Assembly (NCBI GenBank): GCA_016180435.1
Contig: JACPBG010000002.1
Span: 1-58,341 of the forward strand
DNA: 58,341 bases
Direction: 5' to 3'
Origin: Candidatus Sungiibacteriota bacterium
Lineage (GTDB): Bacteria > Patescibacteriota > Minisyncoccia > Sungbacterales > HO2-52-23
Shown here: in pieces, positions 47,340 through 52,330 of the stretch
Layout: every line of letters begins with the position of its first letter
Position numbering within the stretch: position 1 is the first letter of the stretch
Position numbers and translations under genes: made by a program
The notes under the pieces: generated by a model
What the model saw: only the letters and a program-made list of their open reading frames with translations
Databases searched by the model: none
Told to the model about the DNA's origin: nothing

Positions 47340-47408
47340 TAAATGAGGATTTGATCCTGGTCCAGGATGAACGCTGGCGGCGTGGATAAGGCATGCAAGT
47401 CAAACGGG

Positions 47409-47508
47409 CACGTGCTTCGCACGGAGAACTTAGAACTAAGAACTTAGAACCAAGCAGTTTCTAAGATCTAAGTTCTAAACGCTAAGTTCTGCGCGCGGAG
47501 TGCGCGCC
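47409..47508 (+). other. 16S insertion 1 (V1/helix 6): clamp hairpins + TAGAACT heptamer hairpin
   Basis: cgtgcttcgcacgga + heptamer hairpin 47425-47490 + gcgcgcggagtgcgcgc. Confidence 0.8.
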
Positions 47509-47591
47509 AGTGGCGAACGAGTTAGTAATACCCTGGTACGTACCCCAGAGACGGGAATAACTCCGCGAAAGCGGAGCTAATACCCGATAGT

Positions 47592-47862
47592 CCCAGCACA
47601 TATTTTTGGAAATAAATAAGCGCAGTGCGCCTGCGCTCTCATCAAGAAATACTTAGTTTAAGAGAAGGGTAATGATGACGGAAGTAATTAGTACACTTAT
47701 TAATGCACTGAAAAAAGCAGTTCTCTTTTCGCTTGTATTGAGAAACTCTCGAATGAACTTCATGGTATACCCTATGTAAACGTGAAATATCTATAACTAA
47801 TTATATATAATTATAAAAATCTGTCAAGTGTTGTTAATTTGATTCCAAAAATATGTGCTGGG
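47592..47862 (+). other. 16S insertion 2 (V2 region): 271-nt AT-rich intervening sequence
   Basis: Closed by a perfect 19-bp stem: cccagcacatatttttgga / tccaaaaatatgtgctggg. Confidence 0.8.
47653..47763 (-). CDS. Speculative 36-aa hydrophobic peptide ORF antisense to 16S insertion 2
   Basis: MKFIREFLNTSEKRTAFFSALISVLITSVIITLLLN; weak SD; may be chance. Confidence 0.15.
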   Translation of the reverse strand: MKFIREFLNTSEKRTAFFSALISVLITSVIITLLLN

Positions 47863-48111
47863 TAAATCACTTAGATTGGCTCTGGGAGCGGCCTAGGTCC
47901 TATCAGCTAGTTGGCGGGGTAATGGCCCACCAAGGCAATGACGGGTAGGGGGCGTGAGAGCGCGACCCCCAACGGCGACAATGAGATACGAGTCGCACAC
48001 CTACGGGTGGCAGCAGTCAAGAACATTCGACAATGGGCGAAAGCCTGATCGAGCGACGCCGCGTGCAGGATGAAGGCCTTCGGGTCGTAAACTGCTTTTT
48101 AAGGGGAGGAA

Positions 48112-48281
48112 GCCGTGCTTCGCACGGAATGTCTAATTCCTAATTCACCTAATTCCTAATAAAATGCCCAATAAAAAAATGTCTAATGTCCAAAAACAGC
48201 TTTTGGGCTTTGGCAATTTGATATTTTGAATTTTATTAGAAATTAGAAATTAGATGTTGGAAATTTCGCGCGGAGCGCGGA
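48112..48281 (+). other. 16S insertion 3 (V3 region): same clamps as insertion 1 + TAATTCC/TTAGAAA hairpin
   Basis: 15-mer cgtgcttcgcacgga at 48114-48128, identical to 47411-47425; 3' clamp cgcgcggagcgcgg. Confidence 0.8.
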
Positions 48282-48593
48282 TTGACTGTACCCTTAGAAT
48301 AAGGCGCTGCAAACCTCGTGCCAGCAGCCGCGGTAATACGAGGGCGCCAAGCGTTATCCGGATTTATTGGGCGTAAAGGGTCTCCAGGCGGTTTGATTAG
48401 TCGGGCGTTAAATCCCGCTGCCTAACGGCGGGGCTGCGTTCGAAACGGTCAAACTAGAGGGATGGAGAGGGGATGGGAACTCACGGTGTAGGGGTGAAAT
48501 CCGTTGATATCGTGGGGAACACCAAAGGCGAAGGCACATCCCTGGCCATTTCCTGACGCTCATGAGACGAAAGCGTGGGGAGAGAATAGGATT

Positions 48594-49390: not shown

Positions 49391-49751
49391 AGATACCCTA
49401 GTATTCCACGCCCTAAACGTTGCGCGCTCGCTGTTCCGAGTATCGACCCTCGGAGTGGCTAAGCTTACGCGTTAAGCGCGCCGCCTGGGAAGTACGAGCG
49501 CAAGCTTAAAACTCAAAGGAATAGACGGGAGCTCGCACAAGCGGTGGACCATGTGGTTCAATTCGACGACAACCGAGGAACCTCACCAGGGTTTGAAATT
49601 CTAATGAAGTTCCGAAGAAATTCGGAATGTCTCACAAGGACATTAGAACAGGTGATGCACGGTCCTCGTCAGTTCGTGATGTGAATTGTTCCCTTAAGTG
49701 GGGTAACGAACGCAACCCCCGTGGTATGTTATATGTGTCATACCAGACTGC

Positions 49752-49936
49752 CCCCCTCCAAGCCCGAAGGGCTTGGAGGCACAGATGTTCACAGATTTCT
49801 AACGGATTTTCACAGATCACAGATTCACACGGAAACCTTAACAGGCTACATCCGTAATTATCCGTGATCTGTGGTAATCTGTGGAATAATCTGTGTTAAT
49901 CCGTGGAAAACTCGTCATTGCGGGTTTGGAGGGGGG
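49752..49936 (+). other. 16S insertion 5 (helix 40 region): GC hairpin + CACAGAT heptamer hairpin
   Basis: ctccaagccc-gaa-gggcttggag, then cacagat repeats paired with atctgtg repeats. Confidence 0.8.
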
Positions 49937-50159
49937 AGGAAGGCGGGGATGACGTGAGATCAGCGTGTCCCTTTGATATCCTGGGCTACACACGTGGTAC
50001 AATGGCGCGTACAATGGGTTGCAAAGCCGCGAGGCGAAGCTAATCCCATAAAACGCGCCCCAGTTCAGATTGGAGTCTGCAACTCGACTCCATGAAGTAG
50101 GAATCGCTAGTAAACGCGGATCAGCTACGCCGCGTTGAATACGTTCTCGAGCTTTGTAC

Positions 50160-51087
50160 TCGGGTCGCTATGCGGTTCAATAAGCGAGCAGGTTTAAATC
50201 CTGCCAAGAAAATGCAGTTTTTTGAAGCGAAATCGCAGTCCTTCGAGGGGCGACCCTCAGGATGAAGGGCGAAAGTAGCAGCTGCCAGCTTGAATATTCA
50301 TCGAGGCGCGATACAGGCGGTGACCCTGCGAGTACATGGGGAAACCACTGCATAAAATGCCTTATCGCGTATACCGAATATCGAGACGGCAGAGAACCGT
50401 TTATTGGGTTACCATAGGAGATCTTGCATAATTCTCGTAGTATATCTATACTCGAGATAGGAACGTGGATAACTTCGTTCCAATGTTATGCAAGAAGTCA
50501 GCAGAGTTCGTAGTAGCAAGAGTGATTCTAGATGCCGCAATCCGCGGCTTCGAGCGCCTCTTGCGAAGGAACAAATTCAGGCAAAAAAACTTCATCCGCA
50601 GTATATTGCGGGATTCATTGATGGCGAGGGTTCGTTCGTCGTGAGTTTCGGGCGCCATAAAACGCTCAAGCGCGGCATTGAAATCCGCGTTGAATTCACC
50701 ATCGAACTTCGCGCCGACGACAGAGAAATTCTTTATCGGATATTAAAAACCATCGGATGCGGAAAAATTTATGACGCATCATATGAACGATACGGATGGT
50801 ATCCGCATGTCAAATATAAAATCACAAGTACCAAGGATATGGAAAAATATCTGATTCCGTTTCTGGATAAAACGCCGTTACAGGCCAAGAAGCGAAAAGT
50901 ATATAGGGTATTTCGTGAAATTGTTTTGATGGTGCGGAGAAAAGAGCATTTGACCGATAAAGGATTTAAAAAGATCTTCAGATTGCGCAACGAATATCGT
51001 AAATACGGAAAGAAGCGCCTGAAAACCGCCAGGGTACGGGAAAACCGTTCGCCCGGTGGTGTGAGACAATAAGTAAAATTGATCTTA
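50160..51087 (+). mobile_element. 16S insertion 6a: putative intron with LAGLIDADG ORF
   Basis: Begins right after conserved CTTTGTAC; ORF stop is 15 nt before ATACCGCC (51088-51095). Confidence 0.65.
50488..51072 (+). CDS. LAGLIDADG homing endonuclease (single-motif type)
   Basis: YIAGFIDGEGSF motif, 194 aa, inside 16S. Confidence 0.9.
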   Translation: MQEVSRVRSSKSDSRCRNPRLRAPLAKEQIQAKKLHPQYIAGFIDGEGSFVVSFGRHKTLKRGIEIRVEFTIELRADDREILYRILKTIGCGKIYDASYERYGWYPHVKYKITSTKDMEKYLIPFLDKTPLQAKKRKVYRVFREIVLMVRRKEHLTDKGFKKIFRLRNEYRKYGKKRLKTARVRENRSPGGVRQ

Positions 51088-51095
51088 ATACCGCC

Positions 51096-52008
51096 AATTA
51101 ATAAAGTGCCCGGCAGCTTAATTGACTAGTTGGTTAAAGTCCAACCTCCCATTGCATATGGGACGTAGCCAAAAAAATAGCAGTCCACTATCCGTAAGGT
51201 TGTGGATAAAGGGCTTGAGGCAAATGGCAGCCTATGATACGATTAGAATATTGAACGATCGCCGCGGGCGGTCAGCGGGAAGTTCAATTATTTCCATCAT
51301 AGGATGCCGGGAATAGTTAATTAAGTGACCCGGGGAGATCCTAAACAGTCGAGTCATAATACTCGTTTAGGAAGTCAGCTGGCGTCATAGTACCGAGCAC
51401 TCAACCTGCACTACGCTCGTTCTGCGTTATGCGCAGTGCAAGTTGAGTGCTCGGGAAGGAGCCAACCAAAATTATGCTATCTCCTGATTATATTGTTGGA
51501 TTGACTGACGGTGAAGGTAGCTTTACCGCATATATACGGCCACCCAAGAAAGAGCATGGTTCTAAAAATTATCGGATTGAATGTCATTATTACATAAAAC
51601 TGCGTGAAGACGACCGATCACTTTTAGAAAATGTCAAAAATTTCTTTAGAACAGGACGGGTGGTATTTCAGCGGGAAAACCGGACGAATCATCATCATAT
51701 GTATCGATTTGAGGTTACGAACTTGCATGATCTGCAAAATTTAATAATTCCTTTTTTTGAAAAACATAAACTTCAAAGCAAGCGAATTAAAGATTTTGAA
51801 TTATTCAAGAAGATCGTTAAAGCGGTACTGAATAAAGAACATCAAACCGAAAATGGATTGCGAAAGATTCAACAATGGAAAAAGAAGATGCATCAATATA
51901 TGGGCTCGCCGAATACGGGAAACCCGTACGTTCGGTCTCGATATAGAAAGTCGAGGGTTCGATTAAAGAATCGGACTGGAAACGGGAAATAGACTCAATT
52001 ATCCCAAT
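51096..52008 (+). mobile_element. 16S insertion 6b: second putative intron with LAGLIDADG ORF
   Basis: ORF stop is 17 nt before conserved CCGTCACG resumes at 52009. Confidence 0.65.
51447..51992 (+). CDS. LAGLIDADG homing endonuclease (single-motif type)
   Basis: YIVGLTDGEGSF motif, 181 aa, inside 16S. Confidence 0.9.
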   Translation: MLGKEPTKIMLSPDYIVGLTDGEGSFTAYIRPPKKEHGSKNYRIECHYYIKLREDDRSLLENVKNFFRTGRVVFQRENRTNHHHMYRFEVTNLHDLQNLIIPFFEKHKLQSKRIKDFELFKKIVKAVLNKEHQTENGLRKIQQWKKKMHQYMGSPNTGNPYVRSRYRKSRVRLKNRTGNGK

Positions 52009-52330
52009 CCGTCACGTCAAGGAAGCCGGGAGTAGGTGAAGGCTGTCGCAAGACAGTTCAATCTAAACTCGGTGACAGGGACGAAGTCGTAACAAGGCAT
52101 CCCTAGCGGAAGCTGGGGATGGAACAATCTTTTTAGGGTTATATTCGAGCAAAGCATCAAGAAATCCGGATAAAACCGGATACGCTTGGAGAAGGCCCTC
52201 CGTTCTAACAAGAATGCGGTTTTCTCTCGCATTTGCTCACTACCTTAGGTTGATACCGCAATTTTTTGCGGGAATAAGTGTTGATCTCTAACTTTCAAAT
52301 GGAGATCGTGCGGATCCGTCGCTAACGGAT

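Follow-up and report, generated by a model that had tools for sequence, protein, structure and literature searches.

Insertions in the 16S rRNA genes of the candidate phyla radiation (CPR) were surveyed by Tsurumaki et al. 2024 (PMC11270868), who examined 380 such genes and found insertions of ≥100 bp in 48% of them, with maxima per gene of 16 insertions and 5,627 bp of inserted sequence (mean, 1,075 bp). Group-II-like elements occurred solely at position 1400 in that survey, and 39 of 53 carried LAGLIDADG_1. A second description close to the present case is the family of group II introns of the IIC type with LAGLIDADG homing endonucleases (IIC-LHE) at rns-1396, which has a '5' terminal linker' in all members and is listed only in Thiotrichaceae (Liu et al. 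2026, PMC13190283). We analyzed a stretch of 58,341 nucleotides (nt), hereafter the window, corresponding to positions 1 to 58,341 of contig JACPBG010000002.1 (assembly GCA_016180435.1), that holds a 16S rRNA gene expanded to 4,796 nt. We take it, with high confidence, to belong to a Sungbacteria-like CPR bacterium, to be unlinked from 23S, and to be interrupted by intervening sequences of three kinds: a side-by-side pair of group II introns that enclose an exon of 5-6 nt, an apparently group-I-like intron, and insertions at the tips of four helices. The coordinates of all features are collected in Table 1.

In a whole-window Rfam scan, the model of bacterial small-subunit (SSU) rRNA (RF00177, SSU_rRNA_bacteria; gathering score, 50) matched 47339-50204 with 1111.9 bits over model positions 1 to ~1388, and this gene on the forward strand was the sole bacterial SSU match of the window. 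The last conserved SSU match before the insertions of the 1400 region ends in ...CUUUGUACUC at ~50161, and the end called by cmscan at 50204 is a forced, false 3' end. When 49900-53500 was scanned alone, the true 3' domain (helices h44-h45, model ~1395-1533) was found at ~52009-52134 with 70.8 bits, and the gene therefore extends over 47339-52134. Its universal 16S blocks form a complete and collinear set that scores above gathering across the model, and the seven insertions between them sum to ~3.3 kb, of which the 1400 region accounts for ~1.85 kb.

The original prediction had called this a stand-alone, insertion-rich, CPR-type 16S gene of ~4.8 kb (47341-52135) with homing endonucleases, with all universal blocks in order and seven interruptions. 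That description was correct: the Rfam scans moved the ends slightly, the SSU match confirmed the blocks and the interruptions, and placement against the SSU model recovered the insertion sizes to within a few bases (81 nt in helix 6 [h6], 250 nt in h10 of variable region 2 [V2], 159 nt in h17 of V3, 797 nt in the 790 loop, and 175 nt in h40). The prediction had also noted that no 23S or 5S lies alongside and that a fragmented tRNA-Ile stands ~3.8 kb away on the other strand. Rfam called neither large-subunit nor 5S rRNA anywhere in the window, and the single tRNA of the window, a tRNA-Ile(GAU) on the minus strand at 55950-56015, ~3.8 kb downstream of the 16S gene, is indeed disrupted. Since unlinked 16S and 23S genes have been reported to be common in Patescibacteria (bioRxiv 10.1101/705046), a stand-alone 16S gene is ordinary for this group. 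The density of insertions, predicted to be still notable, is high, yet with the larger maxima reported in PMC11270868 it falls inside the published CPR range. New relative to the prediction are the identities of the parts: the 0.92-kb pair represents two group II lineages, the 797-nt unit is group-I-like, and three of the short inserts consist of heptamer repeats.

The host appears, from sequence similarity, to be a Sungbacteria-like member of the CPR (Patescibacteria). Its DnaE (19660-22908) is 60-74% identical to proteins named Ca. Sungbacteria, Parcubacteria group, or Patescibacteria, and the best-matching 16S exons are in metagenome-assembled genomes of Patescibacteria. Directly upstream of the 16S 5' end, at 47293-47336, two tandem copies of the 22-nt unit ATTGATCCGCGTAAATCAGCGT may form part of a leader or processing stem or of the promoter region.

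The limits of the two introns near position 1400 were set by natural alleles that carry one intron only. Alleles with intron 1 alone were found at >40 CPR loci and read CUUGUACUC/GGGU...(A/G)AU/ACCGCCCGUCA (slashes outside the parentheses mark exon-intron boundaries), and alleles with intron 2 alone were found at Sungbacteria loci L056, L060, and L186 and read CUUGUACUCACCGCC/G...CCCAAU/CCGUCACG. Intron-2-only loci thus show GUACUCACCGCC directly before the intron and intron-1-only loci show ACCGCCCGUCA directly after it, so that the limits of intron 1, the micro-exon, and intron 2 are as given in Table 1. A repeated C leaves a boundary ambiguity of 1 nt (51095, a C, may be exon or intron 2), and the micro-exon is ACCGC(C), 5-6 nt long. 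An exon end at GUAC, with the micro-exon AUACCGCC, was also considered and was ruled out by the single-intron alleles. The exon sequence of the clade across both sites is GUACUCACCGCCCGUCAC, with U at Escherichia coli position 1396, and the intron-less form of the 1400-region site is written here as CTTGTACTCACCGCCCGTCACG. The numbering of the sites, with intron 1 after 1397, rests on alignment to E. coli primer-site numbering that we take to be correct.

Compared with E. coli alone, the 1.85-kb block looks like a single insertion at ~1400, and its two halves resemble each other in architecture (direct repeats D4 and D7), as they might in a nested twintron or in a single intron with a duplicated ORF (open reading frame). 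We find such a one-element origin hardly credible. Exactly the expected exon, ACCGC(C), stands between the halves, other CPR genomes carry one half or the other by itself at the corresponding site, the two encoded proteins, each single-domain, are merely 31% identical, and each half has its own ribozyme elements, as detailed below.

Co-occurrence of the two introns was not seen elsewhere in the loci compared. The 46 genome loci that have an intron 1 relative, and five further contigs carrying the closest intron 1 protein, all lack a relative of intron 2, and the six intron 2 loci all lack intron 1. A blastn search with the intron 2 sequence against the 46 related loci found no nucleotide-level homologue. 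Further 3', some single-intron loci contain additional introns: L009 has one of group I, and L182-184 have a third LAGLIDADG ORF. The tandem junction, written as a strict pattern (GTGGTGT..ATACCGCC..GTGCYCGGCAGC), had 0 matches in JGI metagenomes, which is weak evidence of rarity because the pattern is narrow; a looser metagenome pattern (ACCGCC, 6 to 18 nt of any sequence, then GTGCYCGGCAGC) gave only uninformative chance matches in GC-rich genomes. The tandem form looks restricted to this lineage within this small sampling.

Both introns carry the catalytic core elements of group II ribozymes. The Rfam model RF01998 (group-II-D1D4-1; gathering score, 35) matched intron 1 with 46.8 bits, and it matched two relatives of intron 2 above the gathering score (L186, 40 bits; L056, 36 bits). 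Each intron has a domain V (DV) with a CGC triad and a domain VI (DVI) whose bulged A, by direct reading, stands 7 nt from the 3' end, followed by UCUUAAU in intron 1 and by UCCCAAU in intron 2; the sequence of the DVI helix differs among relatives while the bulge persists, as judged by reading and not by count. In the intron 1 family, all 14 DV pairs were formed in all 26 sequences (364/364 cells), 7 of them with compensatory changes, compared with ≤51% paired in slid controls. The C-G-C triad and the G.U wobble were invariant in this family, and its DV 5' strand carries one extra unpaired A. In the intron 2 family, DV together with the next hairpin kept 16/16 pairs with 4 compensatory, and DV alone kept 10/10 with 1 compensatory.

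The hairpin bearing exon-binding site 1 (EBS1) lies ~170 nt into the intron, at a matching position in both families (in most relatives, nt 166-181), and is closed by a variable stem. Its loop is GAGUAC in intron 1, complementary to the 5' exon GUACUC and conserved in 42 of 43 relatives, and GGCGGU in intron 2, complementary to the 5' exon ACCGCC in 5/5 sequences. This change of the EBS1 loop with the insertion site is good evidence for pairing between EBS1 and intron-binding site 1 (IBS1) and for two genuinely different sites.

Each intron contains an intact ORF for a LAGLIDADG_1 protein scoring far above the curated PF00961 cut-off of 23.1 bits (Table 1). The tails of both proteins coincide with catalytic RNA sequence: the intron 1 ORF overlaps the D1-D4 motif at its 5' end and DV at its 3' end, and the intron 2 ORF overlaps DV and DVI at its 3' end. 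The LAGLIDADG motifs, IAGFIDGEGSF (intron 1) and IVGLTDGEGSF (intron 2), retain the DGEG acidic residues. Homologues numbered 666 for the intron 1 protein and 727 for the intron 2 protein, those with names were all from CPR bacteria, and the closest named relatives of both were from Ca. Sungbacteria, Parcubacteria, and Patescibacteria. The best PDB matches were in the fungal I-OnuI/I-SmaMI/I-PanMI group (E values of 3e-35 for intron 1 and 2e-33 for intron 2), and each intron protein aligned to both halves of these two-domain enzymes. These alignments fit endonucleases of the homodimeric single-domain type, which has been shown for a CPR enzyme (PMC11270868).

The ORF-less element in the 790 loop has features that suggest a group-I-like intron. 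It folds with a minimum free energy (MFE) z score of -12.7 relative to shuffled sequences, and the helices P3 (UUCCAC/GUGGAA), P4 (UCGGUG/CGCCGA), P7 (G.GACUG/CAGUCC), and P8 (a long hairpin) can be drawn, with P3, P4, and P8 being read in the window sequence alone; ~390 nt of extra structure precedes P3. With the limits 48593-49389, exon GGAU pairs with GUCC of the internal guide sequence (IGS), placing U788 opposite G, and the last intron base is G, as seen in this one sequence, whereas P10 is weak. The ligated junction expected for such an intron is GGAU/UAGAUACC. L006, L009 (Uhrbacteria), and L056 (Sungbacteria) have insertions at the same site whose R/S-like core and terminal hairpin match those of the element. 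Over these four sequences, the 18 pairs of P7, P9, and P9.1 were 100% paired and 11 were compensatory, compared with ≤39% in slid controls. The group I model RF00028 gave no match at the gathering threshold in these three relatives. The nearest relatives, L003 and L004, lack the element, and blastn against the 46 related loci returned scraps only. We also searched its short ORFs for a remnant of a homing endonuclease and found no Pfam domain. From the conserved helices, we take the element to be a group-I-like intron of a CPR family beyond the reach of the Rfam model, not a confirmed member of group I, and it would presumably self-splice. Unclassified insertions of 500-1,000 nt in CPR 16S genes are on record (PMC11270868).

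Three of the four helix-tip insertions (h6, V3, and h40) are long imperfect hairpins built of tandem repeats and their inverted copies. The h6 insertion (MFE, -33.4 kcal/mol; z, -6.4; period 7 by Tandem Repeats Finder [TRF]; inverted repeat I1) is flanked by the small hairpins CGUG-CUUCG-CACG and CGCGC-GGAGU-GCGCG. It shares with the V3 insertion an identical 15-nt 5' junction, CGTGCTTCGCACGGA (direct repeat D15), found within the window at these two insertions only, and a similar 3' mini-hairpin, and the two look like copies of one module. The V2 insertion differs in having an AT-rich, otherwise featureless, and weakly structured interior (z, -1.8) on a 26-bp stem (47592-47617 with 47837-47862; inverted repeat I3, 92% complementary). 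It is an AT-rich stem extension; considered as a small intron, it had no supporting feature. No nucleotide homologue of the h6, V2, or h40 insertion was found by blastn in the 46 related loci, and the V3 insertion returned scraps only. At the h40 site, relatives L003 and L004 carry a ~160-nt insertion, and that of L004, on reading, is a hairpin of a different repeat unit. At the h6 site, the 16S gene of L056 (Ca. Sungbacteria GCA_000998135.1) carries an ORF with a 23S_rRNA_IVP domain (1421-1852). The same h6 helix tip hosts quite different insertions across CPR lineages.

Period-7 tandem repeats, often in inverted pairs that form hairpins, were seen throughout the window (Table 1). The density of period-7 TRF arrays was 37.7 per 100 kb in the window; related CPR loci had 16.6, and unrelated loci from metagenomes had 4.9. 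In-frame repeats of this period lie inside conserved genes, including those for LepA (amino acids ~332-354, between domains), TrmD, RNase HII, and a second glycosidase, and a GH1 glycosidase has a 14-amino-acid period-7 insertion relative to PDB 6z1h. Within genes, the units carry no more mutations than are needed to keep stop codons out. In-frame Rickettsia palindromic elements are comparable. The repeats also recall the heptamer repeats of cyanobacteria and Beggiatoaceae (PMC4679880). A repeat-generating process active genome-wide probably made the three heptamer hairpins of the 16S gene. Should the finding hold more widely, a single mutational source would account in CPR genomes for both the expansion hairpins of rRNA and the in-frame insertions of proteins.

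The helix-tip insertions could be cut out by RNase III, which would leave a fragmented 16S rRNA, or kept. Their long, near-perfect stems are typical RNase III substrates, an rnc (RNase III) gene is present at 27266-27958, and transcripts of CPR rRNA genes lose their insertions according to Brown et al., as cited in PMC11270868. Permanent retention as expansion segments of the mature 16S rRNA is a serious alternative, to which we give somewhat less than an even chance: the tips of h6, h10, h17, and h40 lie on the ribosome surface, where extra length is tolerated, and where heptamer inserts lie within protein genes of this genome, they evidently stay in place and are translated.

Because rRNA genes are classic sites of assembly breaks, and many related contigs end within 16S, we considered whether the tandem arrangement or the whole gene might be a metagenome assembly chimera of 16S fragments from different CPR populations. 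The Logan contig of run SRR4343430 (L049) is 100% identical to the window over 50069-52099, 2,031 nt that run from exon through intron 1, micro-exon, and intron 2 into exon. Contigs of at least six other runs (SRR12113419, -29, -31, -33, -22, and -90; L050-L053, L055, and L187) span the junction between intron 1 and intron 2 with 100% identity over sub-ranges, and base composition is even across the 16S region. The tandem junction is therefore reproduced in independent assemblies and is not an assembly artifact where testable, and a chimera is exceedingly improbable. The original prediction had raised the case of a chimeric contig; this result answers it for 50069-52099, and 47339-50068 lies outside that support.

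Several observations weigh against the interpretation of the locus as an intact 16S gene with two group II introns and a group-I-like intron. The independent assemblies leave the 5' two-thirds of the gene (47339-50068) uncovered, and with only 58 kb of genome visible there is room for a second 16S copy. Intron 2 itself scored below gathering in Rfam (RF01998, 23.5 bits; RF00029, 25.3 bits), and the 797-nt element had no Rfam group I match at either of two sensitivities, the laxer of which was a scan of 816 nt against RF00028 with lax filters and E values up to 10. Neither group II intron opens with the canonical GUGYG: intron 1 starts GGGUCGC (GG-GUGCC in relatives, a 2-nt linker), and in intron 2 11 nt precede GUGCC. 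Such starts depart from canonical group II introns and fit the '5' terminal linker' of all rns-1396 members (PMC13190283). Finally, the 16S exons have two unusual features, a 3' tail (52115-52134, GGAACAAUCUUUUU) that lacks the CCUCC anti-Shine-Dalgarno core and a U at E. coli position 1396 (window 50160), which gives GUACUC in place of GUACAC; relatives share both traits. A1396 is near-universal in 16S rRNA.

The last two features, together with the disrupted tRNA-Ile gene nearby and the limited length of genome in view, could also be read as signs of a decaying, non-expressed copy, with an uninterrupted 16S gene elsewhere making the ribosomes. Other evidence makes this improbable. The exons still score 1111.9 bits with every universal block present, neither the ribozyme cores nor the two endonuclease ORFs are broken, and compensatory changes are seen in the intron families. 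U1396 was present in all examined relatives bearing intron 1 or intron 2, and the degenerate tail is common to Sungbacteria-like relatives (L003, L005, L056, L060, and L186), whereas Magasanikbacteria and Uhrbacteria loci retain GGAUCACCUCCUUUC. Because relatives with one intron have both U1396 and the degenerate tail, these are lineage traits. U1396 belongs to the IBS1 of intron 1, and it may have co-evolved with, or been co-converted by, this intron. CPR genomes usually have a single 16S copy (PMC11270868), and the copy described here is probably the sole one in its genome.

In our reading, two independent, distantly related IIC-type introns sit in the decoding-center strand of the 16S gene. 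Since each has its own EBS1, DV CGC triad, and DVI bulged A, independent excision is expected: each ribozyme would locate its own 5' exon by the 6-nt EBS1 loop, and the introns would be removed in either order, with the three exons being joined (GUACUC-ACCGC-CCGUCAC). The endonucleases would work as homodimers that cleave alleles lacking an intron, each enzyme at its own site, and so drive homing at the DNA level. The tandem form is harder to account for in this way. Each insertion sits within the expected ~20-bp target of the other enzyme, so a singly occupied allele is expected to be immune to that enzyme; because the two endonuclease targets must overlap, ordinary homing into an occupied allele is hard to picture. 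A tentative idea, which we consider rather unlikely, is that the tandem LAGLIDADG group II introns around the micro-exon (1398-1402/3) arose through ribozyme-directed reverse splicing and not through the usual homing. The EBS1 of intron 2 pairs with essentially the whole micro-exon, and nothing further upstream would be needed. If true, a group II intron without its own reverse transcriptase (RT) would here have moved at the RNA level. An endonuclease with very asymmetric target needs could also have given rise to the tandem form.

Table 1. Coordinates of the expanded 16S rRNA gene, its intervening sequences, and period-7 arrays in the window
Feature	Coordinates	Strand	Description
16S rRNA gene	47339..52134	+	4,796 nt; ~1.49 kb exon sequence plus ~3.3 kb insertions
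h6 insertion	47418..47498	+	81 nt; hairpin of TTAGAAC-type 7-nt repeats; extended hairpin ~108 nt
h10/V2 insertion	47603..47852	+	250 nt; 31% GC; no ORF; 271 nt between stem arms 47592-47862
h17/V3 insertion	48121..48279	+	159-nt hairpin of CTAATTC/TTAGAAA 7-nt repeats; z -6.3
Putative group-I-like intron, ORF-less	48593..49389	+	797 nt; after U788 (or 48594-49390 after U789)
Putative group-I-like intron, core parts		+	IGS GUCC 48613-48616; P3 48986-91/49132-37; P4 48996-49001/49031-36; P7 49122-28/49200-05
Putative group-I-like intron, 3' parts		+	P9 49209-26 (GUAA loop); P9.1 49229-47 (AGAAAUG loop)
h40 insertion	49771..49945	+	175-nt hairpin of CACAGAT-type 7/10-nt repeats; z -4.7; TRF
Group II (IIC-type) intron 1	50162..51089	+	928 nt; between GUACUC (1397) and ACCGC
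Intron 1 elements		+	EBS1 GAGUAC 50330-50335; D1-D4 motif 50458-50571; DV 51025-51060; DVI bulged A 51082; from covariation, Rfam, and reading
Intron 1 LAGLIDADG_1 ORF	50488..51072	+	194 aa as longest ORF; PF00961 E 7.6e-20, 72.2 bits
Micro-exon ACCGC	51090..51094	+	E. coli 1398-1402; from single-intron alleles
Group II (IIC-type) intron 2	51095..52008	+	914 nt; between ACCGC and CCGUCAC (1402/1403)
Intron 2 elements		+	11-nt 5' linker then GUGCC; EBS1 GGCGGU 51267-51272; D1-D4 motif 51322-51461; DV 51909-51935; DVI bulged A 52001
Intron 2 LAGLIDADG_1 ORF	51474..51992	+	172 aa from ATG; 181 aa from GTG 51447; PF00961 E 3.9e-18, 66.7 bits
Period-7 arrays	11799-11865, 24131-24163, 24378-24422, 26506-26646, 35713-35780, 36552-36583 with 36733-36762, 38003-38033, 41181-41210

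Two further features of the window were noted. The tRNA-Ile(GAU) gene (55900-56050, minus strand) has a proper 5' half, GCGCGCAUAGCUCAGCUGG (56050-56032), that pairs perfectly with the 3' acceptor strand. Its D-loop is broken by ~31 nt that include the partial duplicate GGGUGUAUAGCUCA, and beyond the gene, at 55923-55900, comes a second partial copy of the anticodon stem and T-arm (AUGACGAGGUCCUAGGUUCAAUC). The version called by ARAGORN and Rfam is limited to 66 nt and has a collapsed D-loop. The disruption could be an intervening sequence in the D-loop or a set of integration scars. Elsewhere, a doubled 17/18-nt unit, AATTCGTATATTCGTAAA, at 22943-22977 has its exact reverse complement 4.2 kb away at 27195-27229, and the pair brackets genes for a metallopeptidase-like protein, RNase HII, MlaC, and NusB. 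These doubled units could be the terminal inverted repeats of an element or two bidirectional terminators.

Genes of this kind escape 16S primers, length filters, and rRNA callers. The locus is also a natural test case: no strand of the ribosome is more conserved, and in it two ribozymes must find exons separated by 5-6 nt and two homing endonucleases have overlapping targets.

Group I introns are known at 16S/18S positions 788-795, with S788 in nuclear rDNA and S795 in Thiomargarita. Like them, the 797-nt element lies beside U788/U789 and has a U.G splice-site pair, a terminal G, and a P3-P9 core with R/S-like elements; unlike them, it is missed by RF00028, has no ORF, and has ~390 nt before P3. 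Group II introns encoding LAGLIDADG endonucleases are said to have been described in fungal mitochondria by Toor and Zimmerly in 2002 and by Mullineux and co-workers in 2010, and an rns-1396-type intron with LAGLIDADG was reportedly found in Thiomargarita by Salman and co-workers in 2012. The fungal mitochondrial rns and rnl introns (rns-788 and rns-952; PMC13190283) resemble introns 1 and 2 in combining a group II ribozyme with a LAGLIDADG protein instead of an RT, in their rRNA host genes, and in DNA-level homing, which the present endonucleases would share; they differ in being mostly IIB1, in encoding double-motif enzymes, in residing in organelles, and in their insertion sites. The rns-1396 IIC intron of Thiomargarita and other Thiotrichaceae (PMC13190283) is closer, being inserted at 16S ~1396-1400 with a CGC triad, a short EBS1, and a single-motif LAGLIDADG ORF before DV whose enzyme is related to fungal mitochondrial enzymes. 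Here, by contrast, the host is a CPR bacterium, there are two lineages at two sites, and the linkers are of 2 nt and 11 nt. The shared architecture, as distinct from a sequence comparison, suggests homology to the Thiomargarita rns-1396 family. It links the CPR 'position 1400' elements (PMC11270868) to the IIC-LHE architecture (PMC13190283), with at least two lineages at two sites in CPR bacteria.

The intervening sequences of 23S genes that are processed by RNase III (PMC11270868) resemble the short insertions in their long stems at helix tips, the reduced genome, the single rRNA copy, and the presence of an rnc gene; the insertions described here, as candidates for such processing, differ in lying in 16S and in their 7-nt repeats. 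The closest counterparts overall are the CPR 16S insertions themselves (PMC11270868; Brown et al. 2015 cited there), which share the CPR host, recurrent 16S sites, group-II-like elements confined to position ~1400 and mostly with single-domain LAGLIDADG_1, group-I-like and unclassified ORF-less insertions of 500-1000 nt, and short unclassified insertions of <200-250 nt. That survey treats position 1400 as one site (16IS9), defined by comparison with E. coli at a threshold of ≥100 bp, so two introns 5-6 nt apart would be merged. We did not find described in PMC11270868 or PMC13190283 a division of position 1400 between two intron lineages, each with its own site (1397 and 1402/3), the co-occurrence of these introns around a micro-exon, or the heptamer nature of the short inserts, and tandem LAGLIDADG group II introns around a micro-exon may be an undescribed arrangement. 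The gene as a whole is a heavily loaded yet typical member of a described class, in which the exon of 5-6 nt between two introns stands out.

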